This document shows, one piece after another, positions 16,543 to 44,839 of a DNA stretch of 64,000 bases (position 1 is its first letter; each line of letters begins with the position of its first letter). The DNA is from Giardia intestinalis (taxonomy: Eukaryota). The translations under genes and the position numbers were made by a program. The stretch is taken from the NCBI GenBank assembly GCA_000002435.2, contig CM018793.1; one strand, written 5' to 3'. The notes under the pieces are model-generated. The model saw only the letters and a list, made by a program, of their open reading frames with translations. It made no database searches and had not been told where the DNA came from.

Positions 16543-16543
16543 T

Positions 16544-19622: not shown

Positions 19623-20145
19623 ATGGCTACTCTCAAAGACCTTCTGAACACCAATCCAATCGGCATGAGCGAGGAGAACTACGCGCAGCTGCTGCGCTCC
19701 CTCGAGACCCTCAACTACGGCCAGCTGCGCCAGTACGTGCTGGCCCGCCTCAAGCCCCTCGTCGACAACGTCCGCAAGCATCTCCAGGAGGACCCTGTCG
19801 GCTCGATCGACCAGGTCCTCGACTTCCAGGACGCCTTCTGCACCAAGGAGCTGATCCAGACCGTCCGCTGGAACCTCGCGCAGTTCCAGGTGAACGCGAA
19901 GAACCCCCGCAAGGCGCCGGCCGTGCGCAGCAAGGAGGCGACGGAGCTCTCGTACGCGACGGACTACAGCTTCCGGCGCATCGTCTACCCGATCGTCGCA
20001 GACCTCGCGAAGATCCTCTACCTCCGCGCCGAGGAGGCGAACGTCCGGAACCCGAACAGCCTCGTGCGCTACATCCCGCTCCTTATCATGTTCAACCAGC
20101 AGAACGCAATCGGCTACCCGCCCCGCGTCGCCTTCCTCGTGACGC
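19623..20145 (+). pseudogene. N-terminal 174-codon fragment of element-A pPolB, truncated by insertion of element B
   Basis: MATLKDLLNTNP...RVAFLVTP aligns residue-for-residue with residues 1-176 of the intact pPolB at 39160; reading frame runs into the TIR of element B after codon TP. Confidence 0.85.
20140..20145. repeat. Target-site duplication GACGCC (left copy)
   Basis: GACGCC immediately flanks both ends of the 26,015 bp insert; the uninterrupted paralogous pPolB has a single GACGCC at the corresponding site (cgtGACGCCtgccgtc). Confidence 0.8.
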
Positions 20146-20627
20146 CAGTAGTATATATCCTTGTGGTGCCCACTTTCGTTTTTTTGGGCCTGCACGGGGC
20201 TGGGCCCAAAAAAACGAAAGCGTCCCCCACAAGTGCGTCTGCGTGTGCCGGTCCGCCCACTAGGCTCCCACACGCTGGCGCTCGTTTACCTACTTTTCAA
20301 CAGAATAAAAAACCTGTAAATTTTCAAAAAAAATCGCGGCCTCCCCCCGGAACCGCCCAGCGTGGTGCCGTGCACGCCGGGAGGAGACCGCGTTGTCCTT
20401 GGATGTGTGTGATGCGTTCGCGCCCGGTTCAGCTGCCGGCCAGCCTGGTCTGCTCCCTGCCCCCGGGCCCGCACGACACCGAAGTGCGACATACAGACAG
20501 CCCGAAAGCAGAAAGCAGGCCAGCGTTATTTTTTTTTTCTGGGAGGCGGCAGTCAGGAAGTGCAAACCATTCTGACGAATTGATTCTGATCTGATTAATT
20601 GATTCAGGGCGGGGAGGAAAATAAAAT
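20146..20627. repeat. Element B left terminal inverted repeat; reaches the start codon of the first gene
   Basis: Exact reverse complement of 45680-46160; inner end GAGGAAAATAAAATATG supplies the promoter/start of ORF 20628. Confidence 0.85.
20172..20219. other. Conserved 18 bp-stem hairpin 26 nt inside the TIR tip (CTTTCGTTTTTTTGGGCC / GGCCCAAAAAAACGAAAG)
   Basis: Perfect inverted repeat with a 12 nt loop; present in all three TIR copies (also 46087-46134 and 52157-52204) with a different loop in the diverged copy. Confidence 0.7.
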
Positions 20628-21074
20628 ATGACGGATGAGCATTTGGGTGGCGGCGACGTTCAACCTGATAGGGACGATGGCGACGCTGGTGTGTCTGGGG
20701 ATAACGGCGTCGTCGTGCAAGAAGACAGCGTCGATCATGCAGGAGATCCTGGACAGACAGAAGGCCCGCCAACAGCAGAGCCAGCCACAGTACCAGCAGG
20801 CGCCGACTCCCCCGCTGTACCAGACGAGCCAATGGATGAGTCAGAGCTACTAGCAGAGCTCGCGTCTGATAAGATTACCATGCCGATGATGGTTATCACT
20901 ATGGGAGGAAGGTTCTTCGACTGCAAGGACGCTGAGCTCACTGTCACGATGAAGGTAAACGACGAGACGATGGAAGGATGCTATGTCTTGATTGGAGATA
21001 CTGTTCAGGAGGGGGAGGATGGAATAAAGTTAATGGGGTTGGTGTTCAAGCGCAAGGACGTGCCGGCAGAGTGA
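20628..21074 (+). CDS. Hypothetical acidic protein (148 aa), first gene of element B
   Basis: ORF starts exactly at the TIR inner end with AAAATAAAATATG; D/E/P-rich N-half. Confidence 0.45.
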   Translation: MTDEHLGGGDVQPDRDDGDAGVSGDNGVVVQEDSVDHAGDPGQTEGPPTAEPATVPAGADSPAVPDEPMDESELLAELASDKITMPMMVITMGGRFFDCKDAELTVTMKVNDETMEGCYVLIGDTVQEGEDGIKLMGLVFKRKDVPAE

Positions 21075-21076
21075 AT

Positions 21077-22543
21077 TCACTTGTAGAAGAGCTGGAAGAT
21101 GGGGGCCCAGTCGCCCTCTATCTTGGCAGAGAAGGGCCTTGCGTCGACAGAGCCGTCGGGGTAGGTGACTATGTGGTCTGCGCGGAAGTGTAACTTGTTG
21201 GTCGGCTTTTCCAGCTCGTGCCACGCCCAGAACAGCGGGTTGATGACTTGGTAGCGGTCGTGGATGCGGCGGGCAGAGACGATGGGATATCTCTCGTGGT
21301 ACTCTTTGCAGTAGAGGTTGATGCGGCTGTCCTTGTTATACCAGACATACGGCGGAATCTTTATGCGCGTTGTAGGAGAGATCGCCTCATAGAGCTTGAT
21401 AAGATCCGTCTTCCTGATGTGCCAGGCAGTGATAAAGTCTGGCGTTATCATTAGCATGGTTACCGTGGTCATCAGAACGAGATCGTCTCCATCTAACCAG
21501 GCCGCGATATAGGGACCGCTTGGGTTAGGCCCTATTTCTTTCAAGAAGTAGTTGTTGATGTATTTGAAGATGTTGACCATGGCGGTCTTAGTGATGACTG
21601 TTCCGCGGAGCGACAGGAAGTACGGGTCCTTGTGGGGGTAGAAGCGTCTGACCTTCTTGCTTGTTACCTCGATATATGCGTCTTTGCCATATTCGAAGGT
21701 GAAGGTCGGCTCAAGGAAGAAAAAGTCAGGGACGCTCAGCTTGGCGACGGGCGAGTGCAGGAGGATGGCATGAGGCTTTTCGAAACGAAAAAACCCCTGC
21801 TTCTTTTCGTGTTCTGCAGACTCCGTGATGAAGAGTTCGAGATAGACGGGAGCGAGGGTGAATGGGCGGTTGTTTTGGTCAAGGATCTCTATGTCGATGA
21901 TTCGGCCCTCATTGATGCGGTGGTTAACGGCGATGTGGGGGTTGATGAGGGAGAAGTTGTTTGTGATGTGCATAACGCCAATGCAGGCCGGCATTGTCAT
22001 GTTGGAGTCAGACGTGCCGCAGACGTTCTTGCAGATGATCTGGAGATACTTGAGGGTGACGGGAGGATAGGGGATGTCTGAGAGGAGGATGCTCCGTTCG
22101 CCTTGCGGAAGGTTTCGGGAGAATAGTTGCTTGGTGGTTCCGAAGCCAAGTGCCCAGGCAGCCGACGGAGAGAGGTTGAGATTTATGAAGTGGTTCTCTG
22201 CTGTGATTGCTTGTGTTAGTATGAAACGAACAAAGCCATCCTCGGTAATGTTTATTTCGACGTTAGCAGATATGCTGTGTGAGATCAGGTCAGCAAGGTT
22301 CTTAGCGACTCCGTCGAATTCGAATAACGTCTGGTTGGCGGTTACGTCGGTAATGTTGAAGGCGCCGATGCTGTCGAATATAGAAAGCGGGGAGTATGCG
22401 CTAACGAGACTCATATAGTGGCCTGTCGGATAGTGAGAGAGGATTTCGCGGATCTTGTTGCTGTATATCGCATGGTTTACGAGACCCTTTCCTATATTTT
22501 TAATTGTTATAACACCTGTCTGCTTTGTCTCGAGTCTCAGCAT
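21077..22543 (-). CDS. Hypothetical protein (488 aa); candidate virion structural (jelly-roll/penton-like) protein
   Basis: Beta-rich composition, lower GC, position in the structural module next to the packaging ATPase; start abuts AATTAAAAAATAATG; no motif-level assignment possible by eye. Confidence 0.35.
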   Translation of the reverse strand: MLRLETKQTGVITIKNIGKGLVNHAIYSNKIREILSHYPTGHYMSLVSAYSPLSIFDSIGAFNITDVTANQTLFEFDGVAKNLADLISHSISANVEINITEDGFVRFILTQAITAENHFINLNLSPSAAWALGFGTTKQLFSRNLPQGERSILLSDIPYPPVTLKYLQIICKNVCGTSDSNMTMPACIGVMHITNNFSLINPHIAVNHRINEGRIIDIEILDQNNRPFTLAPVYLELFITESAEHEKKQGFFRFEKPHAILLHSPVAKLSVPDFFFLEPTFTFEYGKDAYIEVTSKKVRRFYPHKDPYFLSLRGTVITKTAMVNIFKYINNYFLKEIGPNPSGPYIAAWLDGDDLVLMTTVTMLMITPDFITAWHIRKTDLIKLYEAISPTTRIKIPPYVWYNKDSRINLYCKEYHERYPIVSARRIHDRYQVINPLFWAWHELEKPTNKLHFRADHIVTYPDGSVDARPFSAKIEGDWAPIFQLFYK

Positions 22544-22555
22544 TATTTTTTAATT

Positions 22556-23500
22556 ATGCCGCTCGATCTCTCGCTCAAGACTGCGTCTACCAAGGACGCG
22601 CTCGAGTTCCGGGAGAAGCGCTTCCCGGTCTCGAACAACTGCTTCATCCCGATCGTGGGTGTGACGGGCTCTGGGAAGACGACGATCATCATCAACCTCT
22701 TCCGTCTTCTCAATGAGATCTACCGCTACAGCCACATCATCTATGTCGCCGCGAACTACCGCCAGGACGCGACGCTCAGGGCAGCGAACCTCACCCAGGT
22801 AGTTCTCGAGGACTACGTGGAGTTCGAGCAGGAGCGCGAGCATACGAAGCACGTCTACACGGCGAGCACCGATCTGCTGGACGTGGCCATCATGAAGATC
22901 TACGAGCTCCAGGACCTCCACGCGAAGGCCGAGGAGCTCCGGGAGCAGAGGAGGCAGATAGCGAGGGCGATCAAGATCGCGAAGGACCAGCAGCCAGAGC
23001 TCCTCGAGGACCTTGTTGCCCGCTACATCACAATCACCGAGGAGATCGACTCCATAGCGCCGACCAGCGACGGCACGCGTCCGAAGGTCCTCCTCGCCAT
23101 CGACGATAACTCGGGTGCCAAGGCCTTCAAGGTCAACTCTGAGAACAACCTTGTGTACCGCCTCATCAGGGACAGGAGACACCACAACACCTCTGTCCTC
23201 GCCTGCATCCACAACCTCAAGGCCTTCCACGCGCCCTTCCGCATGCATGCGACGGAGTTCATCTTCACGGCAGGTCTCAACAGCCAGGCGCTCAAGGATG
23301 TTTACGAGGACCTGGGGAACATCTTCCCGATCATCAACGAGAAGGCCCAGGACGGCACGAAGGCGTGCGACCTCTTCTGCGGGCTCTACGACAAGGTGAC
23401 GGGCGTCTACCCGAACGACGAGAGCCGCCGCTACTACTTCCTCACCGTCTTCCGTAACGCAAGGGAGCTCAGGGAGAACTTCGACACTGTCCTCAAGTAA
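22556..23500 (+). CDS. FtsK/HerA-superfamily (A32-like) genome-packaging ATPase
   Basis: Walker A IVGVTGSGKTTIIINLF and Walker B KVLLAIDDNSG (hhhhDD); ~315 aa from the ATG at 22556 (ORF track start 22418 overlaps the divergent neighbour). Confidence 0.55.
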   Translation: MPLDLSLKTASTKDALEFREKRFPVSNNCFIPIVGVTGSGKTTIIINLFRLLNEIYRYSHIIYVAANYRQDATLRAANLTQVVLEDYVEFEQEREHTKHVYTASTDLLDVAIMKIYELQDLHAKAEELREQRRQIARAIKIAKDQQPELLEDLVARYITITEEIDSIAPTSDGTRPKVLLAIDDNSGAKAFKVNSENNLVYRLIRDRRHHNTSVLACIHNLKAFHAPFRMHATEFIFTAGLNSQALKDVYEDLGNIFPIINEKAQDGTKACDLFCGLYDKVTGVYPNDESRRYYFLTVFRNARELRENFDTVLK

Positions 23501-23506
23501 ATAAAA

Positions 23507-23896
23507 ATGCGTGCTCACACCCAGGCGGACGACTACGGTCGCGTCTACACTGTCTCACACCTCCCCTCCTGCGCTGTCCTGCCGACGGGGTCTCCTCCGT
23601 ATGCGCCTCCCCGCGTCGTGCAGGCCTTCAAGGATCCCCTTGCCGGCACGCAGGTTCCCTTCAACTCGAAGAACGACCCGTCCGTGCACCGCATCGTGAA
23701 GGCCCGCCGCTTCGCCTCCCAGTCGAACCTCATCCCCCTCGACTGCAATAGCAACGCAAGGCACATCCAGGTCCCCATGCCCTCCAAGACCCTGACCCAT
23801 GCGATGGCGAAGCGCATCGACCCGTCACTCGCAGACACAAAGAGGCGCACCGCAAAGATGGAAGAGGCCAAGATGCGCATGCGCACGAAGAAGTGA
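23507..23896 (+). CDS. Small protein with basic C-terminus (129 aa); possible core/DNA-binding protein
   Basis: Start abuts GTAAATAAAAATG; C-terminal KRRTAKMEEAKMRMRTKK. Confidence 0.35.
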   Translation: MRAHTQADDYGRVYTVSHLPSCAVLPTGSPPYAPPRVVQAFKDPLAGTQVPFNSKNDPSVHRIVKARRFASQSNLIPLDCNSNARHIQVPMPSKTLTHAMAKRIDPSLADTKRRTAKMEEAKMRMRTKK

Positions 23897-23916
23897 ACTC
23901 CTAGGAAAAAAAAATA

Positions 23917-24462
23917 ATGACAGCCAACGTTGACGTTCAGGCGATCGTCGCGGCGGTCCTCGAGAAGCTCAAGGAGCCTGCAGCTCCGAAGAGCGTCTAT
24001 GTGCCCCCGCAGGCCAAGCAGGCGAAGACGCGCATGAAGGAGGTCCCGATCACCGCCCGAGAGGACCCTGACATCGACCCCTACAAGGAGCTCCCCGAGA
24101 TCAACCGCGAGACCCACGAGTACATCTATTGCAAGAATGGGAGGTGGAGGGCCGTCCCCAAGCAGACCCCCGAGCAGATCAAGGAGCGCACGGAGAAGAT
24201 GCTCGAGTCGCGCCTCAGGAAGCGCGCCGAGGCCACCAAGAGGCTCGAGGAGAAGCTCGCCCAGATAAGGGCCGAGAAGATGGAGGAGAGCATGGTCGAG
24301 ACCGTGGCGCCCCCCAAGAGCGAGGAGGAGCACGAGTCGGGCGACGAGGGAGACCCGGAGCTCTCGAAGATCATCGCCGACCACCTCGCCGAGAAGCAGC
24401 GCAAGGAGAGCCATGCAGCAAACGTGTCAAGCGTGTTCGGCGTCTCGGTCACGCATAAGTGA
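23917..24462 (+). CDS. Charged K/E-rich hypothetical protein (181 aa)
   Basis: Start abuts GGAAAAAAAAATAATG; highly charged helical sequence. Confidence 0.4.
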   Translation: MTANVDVQAIVAAVLEKLKEPAAPKSVYVPPQAKQAKTRMKEVPITAREDPDIDPYKELPEINRETHEYIYCKNGRWRAVPKQTPEQIKERTEKMLESRLRKRAEATKRLEEKLAQIRAEKMEESMVETVAPPKSEEEHESGDEGDPELSKIIADHLAEKQRKESHAANVSSVFGVSVTHK

Positions 24463-24478
24463 ATGAAAAAAAAAAATC

Positions 24479-27097
24479 ATGGCGATCGCCATTAACCCCG
24501 ATGTCCGCGAGCTGGACTTCAGCGACAACGTCAAGGTCTCGAAGTTCATGCAGGACTTCTCGGACTTCAGGGCGAAGAAGTGGATCACCTACAGGCCAGT
24601 GAACGCGCCCAGCGAGAGCGAGCCCTTCTTCGGGGGGACGAGACAGTTCATTATCAACATGGGCACGGGTCACATCCTCGACACAATGTATTCTGGGCTC
24701 TGGTTTGAACTTTACTTCCAGAATAATAGTGATGTGGTGTTGTGGCCTATACAGGCTTCTCTTCCTCGCACTTCTTCAGCTTGGATCGAGTCGGTGACGT
24801 TCCAGCATTCGAAGGTGGCAGCCCACATAGATGAACGCCTCTGCGATTACAACGCTGTCAGCACCATCTTTATTCCCGCGAAAGACATCCTCAGTATGAG
24901 GCAGACCTTTTTCACTACGGCAAATCAGCAGTTTGCAGACAATAATATGTTCAATGATGCCGTAGCCGATGATATATATGGCAAGCTTATGCCTGTAGGC
25001 TCGTTGACTACTTCTCGCATATCCCAACAAACCTTTTCTTTCTTCATCCCGCTTCGTTATTTATCAACCATCTTCAATTCAGGCAGATACTTCTTCCCAA
25101 GCCTGCTTCGCGGTAATGGTGAGATGACTCTATCTATTCGCTCTGTTGCTGCGTCTCTTTCAGAGGTGTTTGGTGGTTCTCGCAGTTCTATGGCCATTTA
25201 TATGAATCCTAATTTAAATGATTACCTTTGGTCAACTGCCGCTTCTGACAAAAAGATTAACTGGGATGTTTGTATGTATAATATGAAGTTAGTTACGCTC
25301 TGTCTCGATAACGCTTTTCTTACCAAAGAGTACAACGCCTTCATTGCCAGCGGCCGCAAATTTATTCGCTCTTTCAAAGCCTATAACTACCAGTTCTACC
25401 AGGTCAAGCAGGGTTATAATCGAATTGAGATAGCGAACACCCATCAGTCGATATCGCACATTGTTCTTGCGTTCCAGGTGCCGTATTCTGTACGCGTCGA
25501 TGGTCGAGCTATTTCGATGATGGATAATCAGTCATTTGGTATTCAGAAAACAACAGCGGGCACAACAAGCCAAACGATTAATGCCAAGAACCAGGGCGCA
25601 TTTGTTCCGACACGAGCAAGACCTTCTATGACAGGTCACGCCGGTAATAATTATCAGCCAGCGCCAGACAACCCGTACATTTCAGCATCAAGTCCAAACC
25701 CTCCTTCTGGTACTCGCGCATTTGGTAGAAAGGCGTTTGATCTTGGTACTAGTATAATGTGCAAGATATGGGATAGTGCTAAAAATCTGAACTGGTCATT
25801 TTTAGCACAACCGACTCTTGCCCTTGCGGCCAGTGGCCTTCCTAAGTCAGTACAACCTCTCGTAACAGCAACAGCCAATATGTTAGTTCAGAGTTCCTTG
25901 CAAAGCGCCACTAGAGCTGGAAGTGTTAAAAGACCTGCGCCGAGAACGTCCCAAGAGAATGATTTGTTAAAGCTTCAAAGAAATAATGCCCAAAGCCTAG
26001 CTAGAGGTTTTATGGATCCAAAGAATCGTGATGTTATAGGGACGTTTATTGACGAATTTAACAAATCGACAGGCGGTACTCTTGGAATAACCGAATTTAA
26101 TGCTATAGCACATCAGTTCCTAACTATGAATAATGCCAAAAGTAATTTAACACAAAAACAAAAGGATGTTTTTACAGATCTTATGAATATGAAGAAACTT
26201 GATCCTGTCTCAATTAACTTGATAGCTTATTATGCAACAGATGATGAGAGTGGTCCGTCAGCCATCACCAATGACCAAGTGAAGAATTATCTTTTGAAAC
26301 ACAACATAGATGAAGCTGACATAGATGAGGTGACCGATATTATAGCACGTCATAATTTAGAAACGGCAGGGGTATCTGTCTCCCAGGGAAGACTTGCTTT
26401 AAACGGTTTGGAAATAGATACCAATACCCAGAAAGTCGTTGCCGAGACCATGGATCGAATATTCGGAAGCGATGATACGTTAAAGACTGCCTTTACTGAG
26501 AGTCAGAAGACGTACTTGGCAAAAATTCTCGCAGAGCTGACTGACCAGAACCACTTGGATCATCACAAGTTCTTTACGCAAATGTTCCCCGCCGAGCCAA
26601 AGCAACTCTTTGATCTCGGCATGCACGTTATCGAGAACCTTCAGGTGTACCGCGGGACCGGTAACGGTGAGACGGTCTTTTCAGAACCAATTAACGGAGA
26701 CATGTTCTACCACATAAGTAGGGAGGCAATGGGCGATTCTGCTGAGAACCATCCATTTTTCAGTCTTGAGAATTTCAACAAGGACATGGCAGTAATTGTA
26801 ATTAGTCTCAACACTTTCATGCGCGACGCTCACCACGAGTTCTGGGACGGGTTCAGCACGAACCGCGTTGCTGATCGTCTCTATGTGGAGTTCAATAATG
26901 AGGAGTTTGTCATTCCGGATCTGTCTAAGATTCAACCTTGGTTTGATGATATCGGTTACCAGGATAATTGTATCGGCCTAGACTGCAAGGTCTTCACGAT
27001 CTACGACAACATCTACTTCATCGACCGCGACAACAACCTGAACGTGTCCGACACGCTCCTGCCCCTCCAGGAGGGCCGCATTCCTGGGTCTGACTGA
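24479..27097 (+). CDS. Large N/S/T-rich protein (872 aa); candidate major capsid protein
   Basis: Largest structural-module ORF, immediately upstream of the integrase, start abuts GAAAAAAAAAAATCATG; the capsid assignment is inferred from position and size only. Confidence 0.35.
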   Translation: MAIAINPDVRELDFSDNVKVSKFMQDFSDFRAKKWITYRPVNAPSESEPFFGGTRQFIINMGTGHILDTMYSGLWFELYFQNNSDVVLWPIQASLPRTSSAWIESVTFQHSKVAAHIDERLCDYNAVSTIFIPAKDILSMRQTFFTTANQQFADNNMFNDAVADDIYGKLMPVGSLTTSRISQQTFSFFIPLRYLSTIFNSGRYFFPSLLRGNGEMTLSIRSVAASLSEVFGGSRSSMAIYMNPNLNDYLWSTAASDKKINWDVCMYNMKLVTLCLDNAFLTKEYNAFIASGRKFIRSFKAYNYQFYQVKQGYNRIEIANTHQSISHIVLAFQVPYSVRVDGRAISMMDNQSFGIQKTTAGTTSQTINAKNQGAFVPTRARPSMTGHAGNNYQPAPDNPYISASSPNPPSGTRAFGRKAFDLGTSIMCKIWDSAKNLNWSFLAQPTLALAASGLPKSVQPLVTATANMLVQSSLQSATRAGSVKRPAPRTSQENDLLKLQRNNAQSLARGFMDPKNRDVIGTFIDEFNKSTGGTLGITEFNAIAHQFLTMNNAKSNLTQKQKDVFTDLMNMKKLDPVSINLIAYYATDDESGPSAITNDQVKNYLLKHNIDEADIDEVTDIIARHNLETAGVSVSQGRLALNGLEIDTNTQKVVAETMDRIFGSDDTLKTAFTESQKTYLAKILAELTDQNHLDHHKFFTQMFPAEPKQLFDLGMHVIENLQVYRGTGNGETVFSEPINGDMFYHISREAMGDSAENHPFFSLENFNKDMAVIVISLNTFMRDAHHEFWDGFSTNRVADRLYVEFNNEEFVIPDLSKIQPWFDDIGYQDNCIGLDCKVFTIYDNIYFIDRDNNLNVSDTLLPLQEGRIPGSD

Positions 27098-27112
27098 GTG
27101 AATGGAATAAAA

Positions 27113-28141
27113 ATGGCGCTGCTCTCTGCGAAGGGCCCGGGCTACGTCGAGATGGACCTCGTCTACGTCAAGGACGGGGGCAGGGAGGAGAAGTACTTCG
27201 CGGCGGTCGAGGCGTTCTCGCGGCTCTGCTTCGTGCGGCAGCTCCCGGACCGGAAGGCGGCGAACCTCGTCCCGGTCGTCGACGAGATGCTCACGCACTT
27301 CAAGGCGAAGAGCGTCCGGGCGGACATGGAGTTCTCGGCGTTCGAGATCCTCAACCTCTTCGAGCGGCGGAGGGTCAAGGTCGACCTCGTGCCCTTCGAG
27401 GTCAGGGACTACTCGCGCCTCGCCACGATCAACCGCTTCTGCCGGTCCCTGCGCCACTACCGGATGAGCGGCGTCAAGCCGGGGGACATCGAGAAGCACC
27501 ACAACCGGGAGAAGCCGGACCACTACTACCCGCACAAGTGCACGGCGGACGTCACGTACGAGGAGAACGTCGCGGTGATGAACGCGAAGCACCGGAAGGG
27601 GATCCTGCCGCTCCGGGGCGGGCCCAGGGCAGACGCGGGCCAGACGGTCCACGTGCGGCTCCTCAAGGACGGGAAGTTCGACAAGGAGCGGCCGAAGTGG
27701 TCCCGGGCGCGGTTCCGGGTGCTCGGGGTCTTCCAGGGCCGCTACGCACTGTGCCGGGAGGGCGACAAGAGCGGCAACGTCATCCTCCGGCGCTTCAACG
27801 AGGTCGCCCCGGGGAGCAAGACGCACACGTACGCGGACGACCACGTCGAGGAGAGCAACCTCTACGTCGTCAAGCGGATCGAGGAGTGCACGGACCGGAA
27901 GAGCAACCCGGTCAGGACGCTCGCGGAGGCGAACAAGATGGACTGCTGGTACCGCGTGCGGATGCTCGACGACAGCCAGGTCTGGGTGACCGCGAACCAG
28001 GTCCGCTTCCAGTCGAACGAGCCGACGGCGGCGGAGCGGCGCTTCTTCGGGGAGAAGGCGGCCGACAAGCTCACCGTCATGCGCGCGACGAAGGAGGAGC
28101 TCGCTGCGAGCAGGAGGAAGTTCCCAGTAAATAAAAAATGA
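27113..28141 (+). CDS. rve-like (retroviral-type DDE) integrase, possibly DDN variant
   Basis: VEMDLVYV...YFAAVEAFSRLCFVRQL...SVRADMEFSAFEI...RLATINRFCRSL aligns with the retroviral IN core (WQVDFTH...VAVHVASGY...TDNGSEF...G.VERFN.TLK); third acidic residue appears as N; start at the ATG after GGAATAAAAATG. Confidence 0.45.
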   Translation: MALLSAKGPGYVEMDLVYVKDGGREEKYFAAVEAFSRLCFVRQLPDRKAANLVPVVDEMLTHFKAKSVRADMEFSAFEILNLFERRRVKVDLVPFEVRDYSRLATINRFCRSLRHYRMSGVKPGDIEKHHNREKPDHYYPHKCTADVTYEENVAVMNAKHRKGILPLRGGPRADAGQTVHVRLLKDGKFDKERPKWSRARFRVLGVFQGRYALCREGDKSGNVILRRFNEVAPGSKTHTYADDHVEESNLYVVKRIEECTDRKSNPVRTLAEANKMDCWYRVRMLDDSQVWVTANQVRFQSNEPTAAERRFFGEKAADKLTVMRATKEELAASRRKFPVNKK

Positions 28142-30459
28142 AACTGACGCACGAGACCCTGATCCGCTCGAACCCCGCGCAGATCCTCCTCCCGCGGTTC
28201 ACGGTCTCGCAGATCATGCGCAACGACCAGCAGGTCTCCTTCCGGATCTTCTTCACGGCGAACTACAACGCGTTCAAGGCCCGGGACTACCTAGTTGTCA
28301 AGTATGCCCAGCCGGACCAGGACGGTCTTCCGTTGACCGATGCGAACGGCTATGTGAAGTACTTTAAACCGGATACGGATCCGAAGATTCCTGCCAACGG
28401 ACTGGTGTTCGGCACGCTCCGGTATAACCCCGCCAACGACTCATATGACATCGACTGGACGCAAAGCACGGTTTCAGACGATCCGCAGCCGTCTGACATG
28501 CTGATACCTGAGCCCGTCGAGATTAGGGTGAAGAAGGCCAAGCAGAGCCGCATCCTAAAGTCCATCACTCCCACTGAAAAGGCGCTCTCCTCAGCCACGC
28601 TCGACTCGCGCAGCAAAACGCCCATCACAGACGAGTCTTCCAAGACAGACGATCAGCGCGAGGCTGAGGTCGTCGTCATGAACGTGGCCATCCCTGCACC
28701 CGAGTCTTATGCCCAAGTCCGCAAGGTTCACTATGAAGAATCGGTGCAGACTTACGCTTCCAGAATGGCCGACGTGCCCGACACTCCTCTTGGCACCATT
28801 GTATCATGCAATGCGCAGCTGACACCCAATGTTGATACGCCGCCCGAGAAGCAGAAACCAAAGGAGAAGAGGTATAAGCTAACGCCCCGGGGCAGGGTGG
28901 TTGCTGTGCGAAGCGATCGTCTCAACGAGCCGGCTCCGCTGTGGGTGCCAGACGGGATCAGAACGTTGCCACTCACATATGAGGGAGATGACACGGCCGA
29001 TAATCTCTTTCTTACGCCCACAAGGGTGGTTGATGGACAGAGGTTCACTTACTGGAACCCGTCTATGAAGTTCTACTTAAGGAAGTATAATGAAGACAAT
29101 GCCATGGGCAGCGACACTTCCTTCCCTCCGTCTCAATCATCGCAGGATCCGTCGTCGTCGACAACAGATGACCTTTCTAGTGAAATAATACTAGTGGCCG
29201 ATCCTACTGGGGGAGCGATTCCGTATTTCGAAAACGATGAGCAAAGAAACAAGTTTATCAAAGATCTAAGAAAGACACCAGGCGCCTATGCTAAGATACA
29301 ACGTGGTTTGAGTAAGAAAACATATGGATCTCTTGTCCAGGCTGACTATGACAACAGGGAGCATATCAGGGAGATGTTAGAGGAGTCGTCGATCGAGCGG
29401 GACATCCTCATTGACGGAAGCGTGATACATCTGGCAGATGAGCCCGATACGCCGGATTCGACGACGCAAGACAGTAGCGAAAATATCGACAGCGATAGCA
29501 GCGTCAATGTCAACGGCGATAGTAACATATCCGAGCCGCGCGGTCTGACTTCACAGTTACGTGTCGTTCACACGGCAAGCGACGTGGAAGAGATAACGGT
29601 CGACGATGAAGGCGGGATGGACGAGGATCTGGATGATGATGAGACGGTAATCGAAGATATAATTGAGGAGGAAGATGGAGAGGGTGAAGGAGTAGAAGAG
29701 AATGGAGATGACGACAACAATTTCGATGATATAGGCGGAATTACTGAACCGCCTGCTCAAGAGGATCCAGATACTCCTAACGATTTAGTGCCGCCTAATA
29801 ACCAAGATCCCGTTCTCGACCCTGAACCAGTCATACCCATGCGTGCCCACCTGCGACCGTTCAAGAGCCACTTCGAGCCGGGCTATGACACAGCAACCGG
29901 CGACTTCGTCTGGAAGGTCCGCCTTGGCTTCGATGGGGCGTTCGACTCGTTCGAGGACTATGTGCGTGTCTTTACCGATGCGATCTGCAAGCGCGTCCAA
30001 GAGGAAGCCTACATGGCCAGTCAGGGTCGCATGGTCGTCGATCCGAAGGAGATAATCGATGGCCTTGCTATGCTGGCTCAGAAGCGGCTCTACTTTCGCT
30101 CGAATCCGGGCTACGTCTATTGCTACTGGGACCATTGCTCGCCCCGCCTGCGCCGTCTTTTCCAACCGCCGCATTACTTCCGAGACCACTATAGCCGCCA
30201 CCTCTACTGGTACCTCATCTGCGGGACCGCAAACTGCACGGAGCTCAAGGACAACACGTTCCGCATCCTCATCGGCCGCCATGCATTCGTAGGACGCGCG
30301 GAAGAGATAACGATCGCCTCCCACGTCCCGATCACGATCCCCGGGAACTCCTTCTTCAACCCGATGAAGATCGAGATCAGGGACGAGAATGACGAGCTGT
30401 ACGAGCTTGAAACGCCGTACATCGTCGAGTGGACGTTCACGCCCCTGCGGGCGGCCTAG
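28138..30459 (+). CDS. Hypothetical protein (773 aa) with central acidic D/E-rich region
   Basis: Start abuts GTAAATAAAAAATG; long D/E/I tract (EDLDDDETVIEDIIEEEDGEGEG); conserved C-terminal domain. Confidence 0.45.
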   Translation: MKLTHETLIRSNPAQILLPRFTVSQIMRNDQQVSFRIFFTANYNAFKARDYLVVKYAQPDQDGLPLTDANGYVKYFKPDTDPKIPANGLVFGTLRYNPANDSYDIDWTQSTVSDDPQPSDMLIPEPVEIRVKKAKQSRILKSITPTEKALSSATLDSRSKTPITDESSKTDDQREAEVVVMNVAIPAPESYAQVRKVHYEESVQTYASRMADVPDTPLGTIVSCNAQLTPNVDTPPEKQKPKEKRYKLTPRGRVVAVRSDRLNEPAPLWVPDGIRTLPLTYEGDDTADNLFLTPTRVVDGQRFTYWNPSMKFYLRKYNEDNAMGSDTSFPPSQSSQDPSSSTTDDLSSEIILVADPTGGAIPYFENDEQRNKFIKDLRKTPGAYAKIQRGLSKKTYGSLVQADYDNREHIREMLEESSIERDILIDGSVIHLADEPDTPDSTTQDSSENIDSDSSVNVNGDSNISEPRGLTSQLRVVHTASDVEEITVDDEGGMDEDLDDDETVIEDIIEEEDGEGEGVEENGDDDNNFDDIGGITEPPAQEDPDTPNDLVPPNNQDPVLDPEPVIPMRAHLRPFKSHFEPGYDTATGDFVWKVRLGFDGAFDSFEDYVRVFTDAICKRVQEEAYMASQGRMVVDPKEIIDGLAMLAQKRLYFRSNPGYVYCYWDHCSPRLRRLFQPPHYFRDHYSRHLYWYLICGTANCTELKDNTFRILIGRHAFVGRAEEITIASHVPITIPGNSFFNPMKIEIRDENDELYELETPYIVEWTFTPLRAA

Positions 30460-30584
30460 CGTCGTTTACTTGCTGAGTAGCGACGCCTCTGCCTCGGCGC
30501 ACGCCTTGTTGAGCTTCAGGAGCGAGACGATTCCGCGGACCGCGGGCACCCTAGTAAACAGGCTCAGCACGAAGATCGTCAGCT

Positions 30585-31241
30585 CTAGTAGTAGAAGGAA
30601 TACTTTTTTCTGGCGGGCGACTTGATGCGGCGGGGCGTGTGCATCAGGCTCGACTCGATGATCGTGTTGAGGATGTGGTACTGCTGGGTGCTGTCCTCGA
30701 TGACGTGGCGCTTCAGCAGGTAGTAGCTCAGGCACGTGAAGACGACCTTGTGGCGGACCTTCGCGACCTCCTCGCGGTTCTTGCAGCTCTCCTTGTAGAT
30801 CCTCTTCGCGTGGTAGCAGAGCAGGTCGGCCATCGAGCGGATCTTCGCGTGGATGACGTCGTTGGAGAACAGGTCGTACGTCTTGAAGATGCCCGAGACG
30901 ACCTGACGGAACTCGATCATGCGCTCCTCCTGCTGGATGCGCTTCTTCGGATTCGTGTCGAGGCCCTTCAGAAACTCGGCGCCCGTGAGGGTGAGCTCCT
31001 TGAAGCTCTTGTCGTCCTCGAGGACCTGGCGGACGTTTTCGGGAATCTTCGCCACGTTCGTGTTGATATTCTCGAGCATCTGGGGGATCGAGGGCACGTT
31101 TACGAGCGTTTCCGCCCCGAGCATGGGCGATTCCTGCGGGATTACGCTCTTCGGGCGCGGCGGCGCCTGCTCCTCGTGGATGCCGGGCGTCATGACGTCG
31201 GAAAGGATAAGCATGTCCGCAGATTTAGCCGAAAACGCCAT
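30585..31241 (-). CDS. Hypothetical protein (219 aa)
   Basis: ORF 30585-31415 trimmed to Met59, whose ATG abuts GAAAAATAAAAAAATCATG. Confidence 0.4.
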   Translation of the reverse strand: MAFSAKSADMLILSDVMTPGIHEEQAPPRPKSVIPQESPMLGAETLVNVPSIPQMLENINTNVAKIPENVRQVLEDDKSFKELTLTGAEFLKGLDTNPKKRIQQEERMIEFRQVVSGIFKTYDLFSNDVIHAKIRSMADLLCYHAKRIYKESCKNREEVAKVRHKVVFTCLSYYLLKRHVIEDSTQQYHILNTIIESSLMHTPRRIKSPARKKYSFYY

Positions 31242-31449
31242 GATTTTTTTATTTTTCAGTGCAAACTGGCCGTTTTCTGCTATGTATAAACGTGCTGTTT
31301 GCGGCGCTTTGCGGCCGTTTGCAACGGATGTGTTGCGGATATGGCAGAGCGTTGGGCGGCAGCAAAATGAGCCGGCGGGTCGAGAATGCAACCAATGTGT
31401 TGCTGGGGCGCACATATGGGCGCATGGGCGGGAACGGTCATATACGGTC

Positions 31450-31495
31450 CTGTACGCACGTATATAGGGGGATATAGGGGTATATAATGTATGGT
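31450..31495. promoter_or_regulatory. Conserved module-junction motif TATAGGGGGATATAGGGGTATATAATGTA (second copy)
   Basis: Matches 11950-11995 in element A. Confidence 0.4.
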
Positions 31496-31499
31496 AGTG

Positions 31500-31850
31500 T
31501 AGGGATGTCCAAAAAACCAGGCGGCGGGATGGGCCGGGCCCGGCCGGCGGGGCGGGGCAGGCAGGTGGGCCGGTCTGGGGCGGAGTCCGCGGGCGCGGGG
31601 CGCATCGGGCGGCGGGGCAGACCCCGGGAAGGCGGGCGGCTGGCGGCCGGAGGGCGGGGCTAGGCGGGCCAGGGCGTATGGCGGGCGGGGCAGGTCCGGC
31701 CTAGGGGCGTTGTGGGCTGGGCGGCAGGGCAGGCAGGCAGGCGGGCGGACAGACAGCGGAGCGGGCGGGCAGAGAGAAAGCCAGGCGGGCGGCAAAAAGA
31801 ACCGGCCCGGGCCGAAAATGGCGGGGGCAGCGGGACTCGACACGGTATGT
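31500..31850 (+). repeat. G-rich, strand-asymmetric low-complexity tract (GGCGGGC/GGCAGG repeats), potential G-quadruplex-forming region
   Basis: ~350 bp of runs of 3-4 G on the + strand; ORFs called here (31280-31843-, 31660-32007-) are P-rich translations of the repeat. Confidence 0.6.
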
Positions 31851-32007
31851 TGGTACTGTTGATAGCCCGGCTATCCAACTGAGCCAACTGTCCCCGAGGG
31901 CCGGGGCACGAGAAACGGGATATATTACGTGTCGGCCGGCTGGGGAGAGCCCTTCGGGTCCTCTGGGTGCCATACGGCTTGAGTAAAGGAAGTATTAGGC
32001 AATTCAC

Positions 32008-32607
32008 TCAGGTAAAGCGTATCTGGCAGGTTTCCATCGCCCTGGCCCTGCAGTAGGGGCATTTGGCGTCTACACGCATTAGCAGCTCCGCGCAGGAGCT
32101 GCAGACGCACAGATGCCCGCAGGGGACGAAGGCGTGCGTGCTCTGCTTATCTAAGCAGACGCAGCACTCCCCGTCGGGCAGCTGCACCCTCTTGACGGCT
32201 TTGGGGCGGCGGCGGCGTAGGGCGGCTTGCTGTCTCCTGATTATCGTTTGAGCCTTGGCTAAATCGAAACCAAGGCTTCTCGCTGCCCCTTCCGCCCTAT
32301 CAAGCTGCTCGTAGAGCTCAGATAGGGCGGTCCCCGCCGTTGTGTATTTGGCCAGGCGCTGCTCTAAAGAGCACTTCTCTTTCCTGGCCTGCGCGCGCTC
32401 TGCCCAAAGCTTTTCGCGGAGCCTCTTCACTTTGAGGCCCCGACGCTTCGCCTGGCTGCTCGCCATTGCGAGCAGCTCTTCGGCCGATCGGAGGAGGTCC
32501 AGCTCGTCCACCGTAGTGGAATCGAGCTGGAAATCCTCGTCCGGCGTTTGTGGGAAGCCCACAAAGCCGGGGAAGCCGATCATGCAGTCAAAAGGCGGAG
32601 TAGTCAT
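32008..32607 (-). CDS. RING-finger (C3HC4) coiled-coil protein, putative E3 ubiquitin ligase (element B)
   Basis: CCVCLDKQSTHAFVPCGHLCVCSSCAELLMRVDAKCPYCRA; paralogue of 12672-13361; conserved GAGAAAAAG upstream motif. Confidence 0.65.
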   Translation of the reverse strand: MTTPPFDCMIGFPGFVGFPQTPDEDFQLDSTTVDELDLLRSAEELLAMASSQAKRRGLKVKRLREKLWAERAQARKEKCSLEQRLAKYTTAGTALSELYEQLDRAEGAARSLGFDLAKAQTIIRRQQAALRRRRPKAVKRVQLPDGECCVCLDKQSTHAFVPCGHLCVCSSCAELLMRVDAKCPYCRARAMETCQIRFT

Positions 32608-32702
32608 CTGAACGGGACTTTTTCTCTATTTGCAATTTCAATTTAAAATGCTTCTCCGACGTTTATTATCCCTATACTCGTCAATATAGTGTAAATAAGA
32701 AA

Positions 32703-33191
32703 ATGGGCAAGGTCATAAGAGCAGTAAACAGGACAAAGAAGGGCTATGTAGGCGCCCCGCGCAGCGCCCGCTCGACGGAGGTGGTAATTACGCTGCCTCC
32801 GCGCGAGTACAGGCGCCTCAGACGCAGCCTCGGGATGACCCGCCCCCCGCCCGAGTTCGCCGAGAAGGGGCGCATTATAAGACACAATAAGCCCTCCCCG
32901 GCGCGCAAACGGGCCAGGATAGCCGCCCTAGAGGCCCTGAGGGCGGCCAGGGAGGAGGAGCTCGCCCGCAAGCGCTTCCCGGAGGACAAGGAGTACATAC
33001 TGAGGATCCTCCGCAAGTGGCTGGGCGAGGCGGCGGCGCACGAGAACGCCCAGATCGTGGACTCCCGCGCCGTCTGCGGGCCGAGGGCCGTCCGCCGCAA
33101 GACCGCCGTCCGCCTCCTCCCTCTGGTGCGCCAGTGGCTGCTGGAGCCCCTCAAGGACCTCGTGGCGAGGCTTGAGGCGGCCGAGAAGTAA
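32703..33191 (+). CDS. Basic R/K-rich protein (162 aa), element B specific
   Basis: Start abuts GTAAATAAGAAAATG; pI clearly basic (RxxR/KR repeats). Confidence 0.4.
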   Translation: MGKVIRAVNRTKKGYVGAPRSARSTEVVITLPPREYRRLRRSLGMTRPPPEFAEKGRIIRHNKPSPARKRARIAALEALRAAREEELARKRFPEDKEYILRILRKWLGEAAAHENAQIVDSRAVCGPRAVRRKTAVRLLPLVRQWLLEPLKDLVARLEAAEK

Positions 33192-33201
33192 ATTGCACCG
33201 T

Positions 33202-33675
33202 TTACTCGTCGTAGCCCTCCTCGAAGAGGTCCCAGGCATGGTAGAAGCTCTCCAGGGCCGCGCACTTGTCGACGTGCTCGAGCTTGAGCGCCCGCCGCTT
33301 CTCCGGGTCGGGCTCGCGCCAGAAGGCCATCGAGCTGATCTTCTGGAAGGCCCGGAGCGCCCGGATCTGGAGGCGACCGTCCCGGGGCGAGAGGACGGCG
33401 GGGAGCAGCTTCTGGCCGAGGAGCCCCTTCCGCGCCATGTACAGCTCGATCATCTCCGCCCGCCAGCGGGTGAGGCAGCGGATCTGGCCCGCGCGGCGCG
33501 CGCTCCGCCTTCTGAACGCGCGGAGGGGGAGCCTCCCGCGCGGGCACTTATCGCAGCGCAGCCAGAACAGGTGGTCCGAGTAGAACGTGATCAGCTCCCA
33601 GAGCTTCCCCTGGGAGACGGAGGCCGGCTGGGCCAGGATCTCGGGCACGAAGCCGAAGGGAGGGAGGTAGGGCAT
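33202..33675 (-). CDS. Hypothetical protein (157 aa), paralogue of 13513-13995
   Basis: ORF 33202-34128 trimmed to Met152 (MPYLPPFGFVPEIL); shared ...WELI..Y...L..LR...... core with the A copy. Confidence 0.45.
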   Translation of the reverse strand: MPYLPPFGFVPEILAQPASVSQGKLWELITFYSDHLFWLRCDKCPRGRLPLRAFRRRSARRAGQIRCLTRWRAEMIELYMARKGLLGQKLLPAVLSPRDGRLQIRALRAFQKISSMAFWREPDPEKRRALKLEHVDKCAALESFYHAWDLFEEGYDE

Positions 33676-33775
33676 CGCCCTTTTTCTTTCCCGTCCGCAG
33701 AAGCCGATTTGAAGTGGTTTGCAACACATATGTTGCTTGGCCGTTCTGCAACACATATGCTGCCGCGAATAAATA

Positions 33776-36205: not shown

Positions 36206-36213
36206 TGAATTTA

Positions 36214-39090: not shown

Positions 39091-39159
39091 TATTTATTTT
39101 CCCCACTCACACCAACCATTTGAAAGTGGAATCTGTTCTGAGAAAATAAAATGACGTAA

Positions 39160-42100: not shown

Positions 42101-42756
42101 GGGAGCCGCTCTACGACGGCGGCCGCTTCCTCCTCAAGCAGAGCAAGCCCCTTCTGGAGGCGAACAGCTTCCCGACGTTCGGGGTCCAGGTGCTCTCGAT
42201 GAGCAAGCGCATCATGACGGAGGTGATGGCGACGGCCCAGGACCACGGGCTCCCGATCTACTACACAGACACGGACAGCATCCACATCGACAAGGCGTCC
42301 ATCGAGCCCCTCCGGAACTACTTCCACGCGCGCTTCCAGCGGGAGCTCATCGGGAAGAACCTCGGCCAGTTCCACTCAGACTTCCCCGACAGCCCCTCCG
42401 GGGAGATGTTCGTCAGCCGCTACTTCATCGGCGTCGGCAAGAAGGCATACCTCGACATCCTCCAGGACAGCCAGAACAACATGAGCTACCACGCGCGCCT
42501 CAAGGGCATCCCCGAGCAGGCGATCCTCAACGAGGCCCGGCAGCGCTGCTCCCACAACTTCCTCGGCGGGCTCTACAACCTCTACGCGGACCTCTACAAC
42601 GGCGTGCCCCAGACCTTCAACCTCATCTACGACGGCGCGGTGCGCTTCGTGCGAGACGCCAGCCTCGCCTACCGCTGCAGGGACGACTTCAAGCGGAGAG
42701 TCATCTTCGAGAGGGAGCCCGATGAGCCCCTGAACATATCAAAGCTGATGCAGTAA
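39160..42756 (+). CDS. Protein-primed family B DNA polymerase (pPolB), 1198 aa, with ~520 aa N-terminal extension (putative terminal-protein region)
   Basis: Exo I FADFETTT; Exo II YFHNLNYDGAFVL (phi29 YFHNLKFDGAFII); Exo III YAHYYCARDCHVL; motif A FDAVSLYPSAM (phi29 DVNSLYPAQM); motif B KLIMNSCYGKS (KLMLNSLYGKF); motif C YYTDTDSIH (YCDTDSIH). Confidence 0.9.
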   Translation: MATTRELLTMHPQQMSEDQLAQLKTSLETLNYTQLRQYVLGRVKPLIENVRKHIQEDPVGSVDQVLDFQDGFWSKDLIQRVRWNLAQFRVNEKNPRRVPTSRAKEALELNYMTDYSFRRIVYPIVADLAKALYLRAEEANRRNTDASVRYVPLLVMFNQQNTFGYPPRVAFLVTPAVITFLRGWKVFADGDDAHQHYLNAVTRDAAQIHGVQSAEPGEMLYCFNWDPIFAGTESDPENPRNAMFSFGTMYEPVFIFQIQIIRTREGQRKLIHRRGGMAPFTNDSFFDLTRYQIEKTGEGFKNSKDTCFLYALKQSGVLSDDEIRAAAFHINQASVTFAMIDAIGKQLFVCFHMHMADRVVLKGAQKNRKVPPGVAIRNIHLGFDFNHYYIFDEKLPYSKTYVNNAAVMMEHHTYPANTNLREVNVRDTFHPQTREPTKKVVFGYHRDDDPHTCSSRDLILSLHKQGLLKPIRSDSLLAIKESFIREEHYEEDALNYCEDQLKEITPKKKTQSPKDVWFADFETTTDGDQHHPFLLCFHGINNVTGTYWAKDYNSIGDMVRAAFNRLAMLNRPQLVYFHNLNYDGAFVLPYFDVKKDSIVTLGASKIIAFTIHVRLSDDRKNKPIPIHFRDSYALITAPLSKFGKMFNLNVHKEVLPYSFYTQDNVKKLCQGFKPTLEEYLSYEIESRREELEQLLRTLPEMLVIDRVDAFKYAHYYCARDCHVLKDGVMGFRRQLLEVTGIDAFTSMTLPSIAYNFLINEKCFEGCFNLNTAPLLFVRQCVTGGRCMLRCNEKQYVEGEVMDFDAVSLYPSAMARLHTLMGHPKIVDPEKHDLGWLLRQDGCFLEIDIEVVPKQLDFPLINRQTEKGRHFSNEPGPMFADNITIEDIIEYHKVPMNRIRVLRGYYYDEGKNTNIQAVIRKIFEARLKFKAEGNPLESIYKLIMNSCYGKSILKPVYKRMNTVDHAGLERELLDNSADVLCWEPLYDGGRFLLKQSKPLLEANSFPTFGVQVLSMSKRIMTEVMATAQDHGLPIYYTDTDSIHIDKASIEPLRNYFHARFQRELIGKNLGQFHSDFPDSPSGEMFVSRYFIGVGKKAYLDILQDSQNNMSYHARLKGIPEQAILNEARQRCSHNFLGGLYNLYADLYNGVPQTFNLIYDGAVRFVRDASLAYRCRDDFKRRVIFEREPDEPLNISKLMQ

Positions 42757-42762
42757 ATTTAC

Positions 42763-43794: not shown

Positions 43795-43867
43795 TTTATT
43801 TTCCCAGTAGTGCACGTCTCAAGAGCCAAACCATTTTAAAGTGAATTCTCCCCACGGAAATAAAAGT

Positions 43868-44122: not shown

Positions 44123-44126
44123 ACGT

Positions 44127-44723: not shown

Positions 44724-44839
44724 GCTTATTTTATTTTCCTGGGAGCCCTGTAACCAGATCAGATCAGAATTGATTCCTGATCAATTCGGACGAAGCGACG
44801 ACTCCAGAAAAAAAAATAACGCTGACGTGAATTCGATGT

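Follow-up and report, generated by a model that had tools for sequence, protein, structure and literature searches.

A covarying hairpin behind the tips of a Giardia Polinton/Maverick element and its possible part in an origin of protein-primed replication

Does a palindrome that lies just inside the ends of a large mobile element of Giardia serve as a signal for that element, and in which process would it be used? Polintons/Mavericks are thought to be ancestral to adenoviruses, virophages, and giant viruses. To our knowledge, nobody has yet reconstituted the replication of a Polinton or defined its origin, and no cis-acting element has been named beyond "TIRs" (terminal inverted repeats). The palindrome is found in a window of 64,000 nucleotides (64 kb), the whole stretch of DNA that was analyzed, from Giardia intestinalis WB. 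Ordinary host genes occupy the flanks; delta-giardin, the Rad3 helicase, and the element polymerase are exact matches to NCBI proteins of strain ATCC 50803.

Element B and the palindrome at its ends

The palindrome belongs to element B, which is inserted in the pPolB gene of an older copy, element A. The two elements are about 70-89% identical, and the homology to A flanks the insertion on both sides. Element B shows the traits of a Polinton/Maverick, namely pPolB, long TIRs, AG...CT termini, and a 6-bp target-site duplication (TSD). Its termini read 5'-AGTAGTATATATCC...GGATATATACTACT-3'. The TIRs are 488 nt long and 100% identical by repeat search; by blastn the value is 99.6%, with 4 flanking nucleotides counted in the span. 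The main features of the element are the following.

20147..46160, plus strand: element B, an intact Polinton/Maverick-type element of 26,014 bp with termini 5'-AG...CT-3', delimited by TIRs, tip motif, and A homology on both sides
20141..20146 (left) and 46161-46166 (right), unstranded: target-site duplication GACGCC, perfect over 6 bp and read directly
20147..20634, plus strand: left TIR of B, with tip, hairpin, non-conserved spacer, and AT-rich initiator GGAAAATAAAAT followed by ATG
45673..46160, minus strand: right TIR of B, mirror of the left TIR
20147..20159, plus strand: 13-nt tip AGTAGTATATATC, predicted to be unpaired
20628..21074, plus strand: terminal ORF of 148 aa, with its ATG inside the inner end of the left TIR
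21077..22543, minus strand: penton-like (minor capsid) protein of 488 aa, AF2 model with pLDDT 79
27098..28141, plus strand: candidate retroviral-type (rve) integrase of 347 aa, weak Pfam rve match
39160..42756, plus strand: pPolB of 1198 aa, Pfam DNA_pol_B_2 at 5e-37 (128 bits against a cut-off of 25.8)
44840..45679, minus strand: terminal ankyrin-repeat gene of 279 aa, Pfam Ank_2 at 4e-61, with its ATG inside the inner end of the right TIR

The pPolB is identical to Giardia intestinalis XP_001707488.1 (exact look-up). Its polymerase domain spans residues 569-974, and the N-terminal portion of about 560 aa, which has no domain match, is a candidate terminal protein. The rve match of the 347-aa ORF (E 6e-4, 20.4 bits) is under the cut-off of 32.6, and the 50%-identical orthologue in the related contig L014 has an equally weak rve match. 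The same ORF has a PHROG transposase match at 8e-4, and a PDB sequence search against solved integrase structures returned no match. In Foldseek, the penton-like model matched the pentons of mavirus (6g42, E 7e-7), Sputnik (3j26_N, 9e-6), and MELD virus (6e-10), each with probability 1.00 but with low TM-scores. Element B also encodes a deoxynucleoside kinase and a RING-finger protein. No MCP, protease, or packaging ATPase was identified in element B with Pfam and PHROG profiles; a Pox_A32-type packaging ATPase above threshold was found in the relative L014 only. PHROGs and PDB sequence searches were of no help in annotating capsid or integrase genes. Taken together, sequence and structural model indicate that element B is a Polinton/Maverick in which a capsid module is at least partly present.

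At the left end of B, positions 20173-20220 form an 18-bp perfect stem (CTTTCGTTTTTTTGGGCC / GGCCCAAAAAAACGAAAG) with a loop of 12 nt, and a second copy of this stem lies at 46087-46134, at the right end. Both are arms of one 100%-identical TIR, so they amount to one independent observation. A first-pass annotation of this DNA had placed the right-end copy correctly and the left-end copy 1 nt off, at 20172-20219. It had also described a third copy, at 52157-52204 in element A, as an intact stem with a replaced loop. The right arm of this copy is indeed unchanged, but the left arm (TTTTCGTTTTTTTGGGTA) differs at 3 of 18 positions, so that the perfect stem is reduced to 15 bp (52158-52172 / 52189-52203), with a 16-nt loop and a T.G at the stem base. 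As for the loop, the two elements had been compared in opposite orientations; read from the tip inward, the loops of B and A (CCTGCACGGGGCTGGG and CCGGCCGGGGGCCTTA) are identical at 9 of 16 positions, and they have diverged rather than been exchanged.

The stem starts 26 nt inside the tip at 20147, 46160, and 52230, the last being the right tip of A (tip segment 52218-52230). The earlier statement that this distance applies to every TIR tip thus holds for the three tips that are present; the left TIR of A lies outside the window, as judged from the tip motif and the covariance model R1.

Chance can be excluded as the origin of the palindrome. There are 6 matches to the arms in the window against 0.02 expected, and apart from the three hairpins the whole 64 kb has no perfect stem of at least 12 bp with a loop of 3-24 nt. 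Windows simulated by a Markov model contained 0.075 such stems per window on expectation, with a longest simulated stem of 12. Model R1 detected no further or degenerate copies of the module in the window or in 21 loci, and Rfam 15 gave 0 matches across the whole window at the gathering threshold. When folded as DNA, the hairpins of the window have z-scores from -4.5 to -7.0 and extend beyond the 18-bp stem as follows.

20160..20233, plus strand: extended hairpin at the left end of B, DNA fold of -28.7 kcal/mol, z -4.7, with covariation
20160-20166 / 20227-20233: outer 7-bp helix of this hairpin, with a 6x6 internal loop
20173-20190 / 20203-20220: its inner 18-bp stem, with the loop at 20191-20202
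46074..46147, minus strand: extended hairpin at the right end of B, inner stem 46087-46104 / 46117-46134, z -7.0
52145..52216, minus strand: extended hairpin at the right end of the older element A, 15-bp perfect stem and 16-nt loop

The outer helix of the element A hairpin has a sequence unlike that of B.

Conservation of pairing among related elements

The first-pass annotation had taken the comparison of A with B as an argument for selection on structure. These two copies are not enough to tell whether selection acts on sequence or on structure: both have the same arms in the 15-bp core, and there is no covariation between them. With relatives added, the claim proved correct. Homologues of pPolB with 98-54% identity were collected from ENA/Logan assemblies, on contigs of Giardia type. 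Four contigs reach the element tip (L001, L004, L010, and L014), and L015 ends inside the hairpin; the related contigs L002, L003, L005-L009, L011, L017, and L021 stop before the tip. The relatives add four lineages, with pPolB 98-55% identical, so that the sample covers five lineages only (6-7 termini); except for a single pair, every terminus is a right end.

In all relatives that reach the tip, the sequence begins with AGTAGTAT(A/G)TA and the palindrome is at the matching place. The pattern AGTAGTAT.TA is invariant across all lineages, and the tip opens with an AGT AGT triplet repeat. In every lineage a long imperfect hairpin starts at nt 13-23. The first-pass annotation had proposed folding of the TIRs as a check; as single-stranded DNA, every terminus folds into one long imperfect hairpin that begins at nt 14-23, with the tip unpaired (z -4.5 to -9.4). 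It had also suggested a comparison of all genomic copies for covariation, and had stated that lack of the stem in other copies would refute the idea; the stem is kept in all five lineages. The runs T6-7 and A6-7 and an adjacent G:C pair are invariant, the remainder of the hairpin covaries, and the T-run is fixed at nt 33-40 from the tip. The loops vary from 4 to 16 nt and have no common sequence between lineages.

Paired changes are found in several relatives. TTTCG/CGAAA is changed to TTACG/CGTAA in L004, and L010 has TTGTGG/CCACAA in its place, within a perfect stem of 26 bp. The most divergent case is L014, with a pPolB only 55% identical and a different gene order; its 19-bp perfect stem has a mostly different sequence (CCATCTATACTTTTTTGAA) and a 6-nt loop. 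In a six-sequence alignment of the 32-pair helix, 83% of the cells are paired and 15 of the 32 pairs have changes on both sides. No shuffle out of 500 equalled these pairing values. Controls in which the partner was moved by 1-3 columns gave 38-55% paired cells and 2-8 pairs changed on both sides. Independently, RNAalifold predicted 23 pairs, 11 of them with compensatory changes. The alignment indicates that the pairing, and not just the sequence, is under selection.

The arms of a palindrome can be homogenized by repair in the hairpin state, and some of the covariation may not reflect selection. Such homogenization would itself still require that the hairpin forms.

The conserved part of the TIR is narrow. 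Between lineages, identity is 85-100% at nt 1-13, 53-76% at nt 14-91, and 27-36%, essentially random, in the remainder. Tip and hairpin are thus the sole parts of the TIR that are conserved between lineages, and the rest cannot be aligned. The module comprises nt 1-90 of the TIR, with the hairpin proper in a sub-terminal position at nt 14-87; its layout is a 13-nt AT-rich tip without pairing, AGTAGTAT(A/G)TAT., and right after it an imperfect hairpin of 60-75 nt. At the inner end of both B copies the sequence GGAAAATAAAAT-ATGA opens the 148-aa ORF on the left and the ankyrin gene on the right. We take this AT-rich initiator to be of the kind known from Giardia genes. Judged by sequence, the TIR of B is made up of an end-recognition module (tip and hairpin), a spacer that evolves freely, and a promoter that faces inward.

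Outside this group of contigs, the module was not recovered. Viral contigs of IMG/VR contained no relatives when searched with the exact hairpin pattern, the pPolB profile, and a pattern of tip, T-run, and A-run; 12 pattern matches there were rejected as chance matches. A gapped pattern gave at least 120 matches in GTDB, a collection without eukaryotes for which the pattern was too loose; these were chance matches in AT-rich bacterial sequence, none with a palindrome in register. Among JGI metagenome contigs, the pPolB profile found three distant loci only, with at most 39% identity. The contig end of L018 has no AGTAGT tip, and a scan of L018-L020 with the covariance model did not detect the module.

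In two contigs, L001 and L014, the sequence stops precisely at the tip. This would fit free linear genomes and would equally fit a break made by the assembler at a repeat boundary.

Possible functions of the terminal module

With an invariant tip and a palindrome that compensatory changes preserve in distant relatives, it is very probable that the two constitute a working end signal. Our preferred reading, to which we give a probability of about 0.4 by analogy with other replicons, is that the tip-hairpin module is the origin of terminal-protein-primed replication by the pPolB of the element, with the hairpin as an auxiliary part. This reading fits the position of the module, the presence of pPolB, and the adenovirus-like AGTAGT tip. 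As in protein-primed origins, the module lies at the extreme end inside a terminal repeat, and AGT AGT is found at the tips of all five lineages; the supporting gene is the pPolB with its long N-terminal extension.

In the mechanism proposed, the tip would be the core origin, where synthesis would be primed at positions 4-6 of the AGT AGT repeat and then jump back to 1-3, and the hairpin would be an auxiliary element beside it. If a cruciform were extruded at nt 14-87, the end would be reduced to an AT-rich stub of 13 bp, which should fray easily. Alternatively, the hairpin may fold in the displaced or the template single strand and create a defined junction of tail and duplex. The 13-nt tail next to a duplex could then be a dock for the complex of terminal protein and polymerase, or for a protein that recruits it. 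Cruciform extrusion in linear, unconstrained DNA needs the help of protein, and the known minimal protein-primed origins are the terminal 12-20 bp, in which no hairpin is required. In phi29, about 6 unpaired terminal nucleotides strengthen the origin 30-fold when both strands are present, but origins with a purely single-stranded 3' or 5' region work poorly and the displaced strand is needed (PMC4150772). This result weakens the version of the model with a single-strand tail.

The first-pass annotation had suggested an origin or a packaging signal; recognition by the integrase was absent from its list. An rve-type integrase must also recognize the ends of the element, a point that counts against the origin. 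The rve-type integrase or an accessory protein may bind the palindrome, as a cruciform or hairpin or at two sites, and join the ends in a transpososome for 3' processing and integration with a 6-bp stagger. The element did integrate, with a perfect 6-bp TSD and AG...CT ends; the rve-like ORF is kept in both gene orders, and many DDE transposons are established to have sub-terminal binding sites away from the cleavage site. That tip and hairpin are the only conserved parts of the TIR fits any function in end recognition. Retroviral-type integrases, however, need only about the terminal 10-20 bp, as is also established, and the integrase assignment itself is under the Pfam threshold. Moreover, the arm spacing of 18-29 bp and the covariation at unconserved positions point to base pairing rather than read-out of a duplex. 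We regard integrase recognition as a possible but unlikely explanation.

Packaging is a less probable function. The hairpin would mark the genome end for a packaging ATPase or portal of the polintovirus type. B encodes a penton-like fold and L014 a Pox_A32-type ATPase, and the signal is at both ends, as expected if either end enters the capsid. On the other side, no packaging ATPase is detectable in element B itself, and the packaging domain of adenovirus, by established knowledge, lies further inside, at one end only, and consists of repeated short motifs. One publication states that no Polinton virion has been observed (PMC8097293).

A duplex site for a dimeric DNA-binding protein, such as a transcription or bending factor comparable to NFI, would also produce a palindrome, with the arms as half-sites that co-evolve with the protein. 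The core T6-7G / CA6-7 is invariant and the tip-proximal T-run keeps its position. Related single motifs lie deeper in two TIRs: ACTTTTTTGGA recurs at about nt 186-196 in L014 and L015, and L014 alone has GAAAAAAGTAGAG at about nt 122-134. These extra copies make some sequence-specific recognition likely. Against a dimer site, the distance between the centers of the T-run and the A-run is 29, 29, 28, 25, and 18 bp in the five lineages, and the arms are complementary over 19-26 bp, even at positions that vary freely from one lineage to another. Such variable spacing is incompatible with a rigid dimer on B-DNA, and arms of 15-26 bp are too long for half-sites. Neither the arm motif nor an isolated half-site occurs elsewhere in the window, and about 400 nt separate the palindrome from the Giardia-type initiator at the inner end of the TIR. 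Spacing, complementarity at unconserved positions, and the lack of other arm motifs in the window together argue that intrastrand pairing, as a single-stranded DNA hairpin or a cruciform, is maintained, and a dimer site is accordingly improbable. Since the T/A core is invariant and its distance to the tip is fixed, part of the stem may in addition be read by a protein, or a segment that melts readily may be required at a set distance.

Still less probable is a hairpin that acts in RNA, as a Dicer substrate, a precursor of small RNA, or a signal for transcript ends. The total stem of 25-35 bp is within the established range of Giardia Dicer (25-27 nt), and RNA read in either direction would fold just as well. 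The G.U-type pairs, however, have no strand bias, and there is no match to an Rfam family. The sole promoter-like element of the TIR is at the inner end and points inward, with the hairpin upstream of the terminal genes; the nearest gene that reads outward stops 930 nt from the tip. The invariant T-run would be left without explanation.

The palindrome is very improbable as a functionless by-product, in which template switching by a strand-displacing polymerase would have created the symmetry and hairpin repair would have kept it: protein-primed replicons are established to regenerate and homogenize their inverted ends, and the TIRs of B are 100% identical, but the position and the T/A core are shared by lineages with a pPolB identity of only 55% and with TIRs that otherwise cannot be aligned. 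Three further candidates were ruled out: a transcription terminator by the same 930-nt distance, an upstream promoter element by the roughly 400 nt to the initiator, and a coding palindrome by loop length differences that are not multiples of 3.

Comparison with other replicon ends

The origin of adenovirus, like the one preferred here for the Giardia module, belongs to a linear protein-primed replicon. It has a terminal CATCAT, an AT-rich core at nt 9-18 that is bound by pTP-pol, and auxiliary NFI/Oct-1 sites at nt 25-50. The Giardia tip has a triplet repeat of its own (AGTAGT), followed by an AT-rich conserved stretch (ATATATCC, compared with ATAATATACC in adenovirus) and by a partly palindromic auxiliary element about 25 nt in. 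Polintons and adenoviruses share a common ancestry of pPolB and capsid. In contrast, host factors of adenovirus bind auxiliary sites that are short, duplex, and fixed in spacing, whereas the Giardia element has a covarying stem of 15-26 bp with a variable loop and is thus a structure, not a duplex site. A wider claim, which we hold to be doubtful and which draws on this analogy, is that the module is the first defined cis-acting origin of a Polinton/Maverick. A hairpin in single-stranded or frayed DNA would then present the 13-nt AGTAGT tail to the terminal protein fused to pPolB, with no need of a panhandle, and the layout of triplet repeat, AT-rich core, and auxiliary palindrome at about nt 25-50 would be homologous to the adenovirus origin, from a common polintovirus ancestor.

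We know of no hairpin element in the origins of phi29 or of the pGKL killer plasmids. These replicons resemble the Giardia element in that their origins lie in terminal repeats, opening of the end is rate-limiting, unpaired terminal nucleotides stimulate initiation (PMC4150772), and accessory proteins bind inside the TIR; the minimal origin of phi29, by contrast, is about 12 bp.

The 'typical' telomeres of Streptomyces have the same geometry. Their first 13 nt are the template for synthesis primed by the terminal protein, and directly after these 13 nt come conserved palindromes that form hairpins; Tap binds them as single strands and so puts the terminal protein in place (PMC4513846). The 13-nt unpaired tip and hairpin of the Giardia element correspond to this arrangement. 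Streptomyces, however, uses it for patching of the ends after internal initiation, a bacterial process distinct from strand displacement by pPolB. Each of its telomeres packs several palindromes closely together, with conserved loops closed by G:A, and Palindromes I and IV pair with each other (PMC4513846); in the Giardia element a single hairpin with unconserved loops follows a tip that is predicted to be unpaired, so that it does not qualify as a telomere of the Streptomyces type. No homologues of Tap or Tpg were seen in the element.

Palindromes have also been described in the TIRs of Halocafeteria seosinensis virophages and one PLV subtype, with a proposed role in replication (bioRxiv 10.64898/2026.07.28.741278). 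These too are endogenous Polinton-related elements of a protist host. Their palindromes, however, are at the extremity beside the TSD, in elements without pPolB, and self-priming similar to that of parvoviruses or poxviruses was proposed (bioRxiv 10.64898/2026.07.28.741278). The Giardia palindrome lies 13-26 nt inside an invariant tip, pPolB is present, and covariation extends across lineages, an arrangement other than that of self-priming ends. Helitrons provide another parallel: their 3' hairpin is sub-terminal, with conserved pairing, variable sequence, and a fixed short distance to the end, and during replication it is recognized in single-stranded DNA. A Helitron has this hairpin at just one end, in elements with Rep/helicase rolling-circle replication and without TIRs or TSD, and it is a terminator rather than an origin.

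Structured elements that act in cis are known from the ends of other linear replicons, protein-primed or related to Polintons. Our literature search found no description of a conserved sub-terminal hairpin in pPolB Polintons or of the ends of Giardia Polintons, and no paper that links Polintons with slide-back.

The module of 13-nt tip and hairpin, backed by covariation, defines substrates of about 90 nt for assays of initiation, integrase activity, and packaging. The hairpin could also serve as a signature for finding Polinton ends in Giardia assemblies. Element B seems to be intact and to have transposed recently, and it resides in the reference strain of a parasite of humans; since Giardia can be cultured and transfected, the function of the ends is accessible to experiment.

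Tips of the elements and the second lineage

Every tip, in the window as in the contigs of four relatives found through homology of the protein-primed DNA polymerase B, pPolB (L001, L004, L010 and L014), opens with an AGT AGT triplet repeat followed by AT(A/G)TAT. In the window, the repeats were read in the sequence at three positions:

20147-20152, AGTAGT repeat, left tip of element B
46155-46160, AGTAGT repeat, right tip of element B
52225-52230, AGTAGT repeat, right tip of the older element A

The adenovirus end consists of CATCAT and then an AT-rich core. This succession of triplet repeat and AT-rich stretch is the same layout as that of the Giardia Polinton tips, and by analogy suggests jumping-back during protein priming. 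The short-read contigs L001 (end 12945) and L014 (end 17990) stop exactly at the AGTAGT tip; the samples in question may contain the genomes as free linear molecules, or the assembly may simply have broken where a repeated element begins or ends.

The same tip plus hairpin is retained in a second lineage, comprising L014 (ERZ27287779 k141_64424) and L015 (ERZ27273579 contig_3874), in which pPolB is 55% identical, the gene order is rearranged, the putative integrase adjoins the right tip and a Pox_A32-type ATPase exceeds the Pfam threshold. A related single motif, ACTTTTTTGGA, occurs in both contigs at about nt 186-196 from the end, and L014 additionally carries GAAAAAAGTAGAG at about nt 122-134 of its end.

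Inner end and middle block of the terminal inverted repeat

Both copies of the terminal inverted repeat (TIR) of element B end internally in GGAAAATAAAAT-ATGA (20618-20634 and 45673-45689), which, judged from its sequence, is a Giardia-type AT-rich initiator with a start codon. Each copy opens a terminal gene:

20628-21074, plus strand, 148-aa ORF opened by the left TIR copy
44840-45679, minus strand, 279-aa ankyrin-repeat gene opened by the right TIR copy

The TIR thus also serves as the predicted promoter of both terminal genes. In the ankyrin-repeat gene, 5-6 tandem 93-nt repeats (45012-45582) code for the ankyrin repeats. An AT-rich block in the middle of the TIR, GAATAAAAAACCTGTAAATTTTCAAAAAAAA (20294-20347 and 52050-52103), is 83% conserved between elements A and B, and is not conserved in L004 or L010.

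Element A and the flanking inverted duplication

Element A lies in two pieces (14063-20146 and 46161-52230), its pPolB gene having been interrupted by the insertion of B. The window contains the right TIR of A, but neither the left TIR nor the left part, equivalent to about 13.6 kb of B. The entire nested cluster is flanked on both sides by a 100% perfect inverted duplication of 2278 nt (9219-11496 and 52358-54635). The duplicated sequence covers the 3'-terminal portion of a host gene (6477-9434) and part of a third pPolB gene. Either the segment is genuinely duplicated in inverted orientation, or the duplication arose in the assembly. The AT-rich sequence at 11940-12100, tatatctagggatataggggtatatagtataggtataggg, is unusual.

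Genes carried by element B

Three further genes of element B are as follows:

21077-22543, minus strand, 488-aa ORF with no annotated domain (AlphaFold model, pLDDT 79)
32008-32607, minus strand, C3HC4 RING-finger protein
42763-43815, minus strand, deoxynucleoside kinase (Pfam dNK, 1.4e-15)

In its predicted structure, the 488-aa protein matches viral penton proteins, namely those of mavirus, Sputnik, MELD virus and adenovirus. Among the homologues of this penton-like ORF are two 'hypothetical proteins' of Giardia lamblia P15, GLP15_2182 and GLP15_3534. The deoxynucleoside kinase gene adjoins pPolB in all close relatives, a conserved arrangement. The Giardia host relies on nucleoside salvage, and given this dependence a deoxynucleoside kinase borne by the element is noteworthy.
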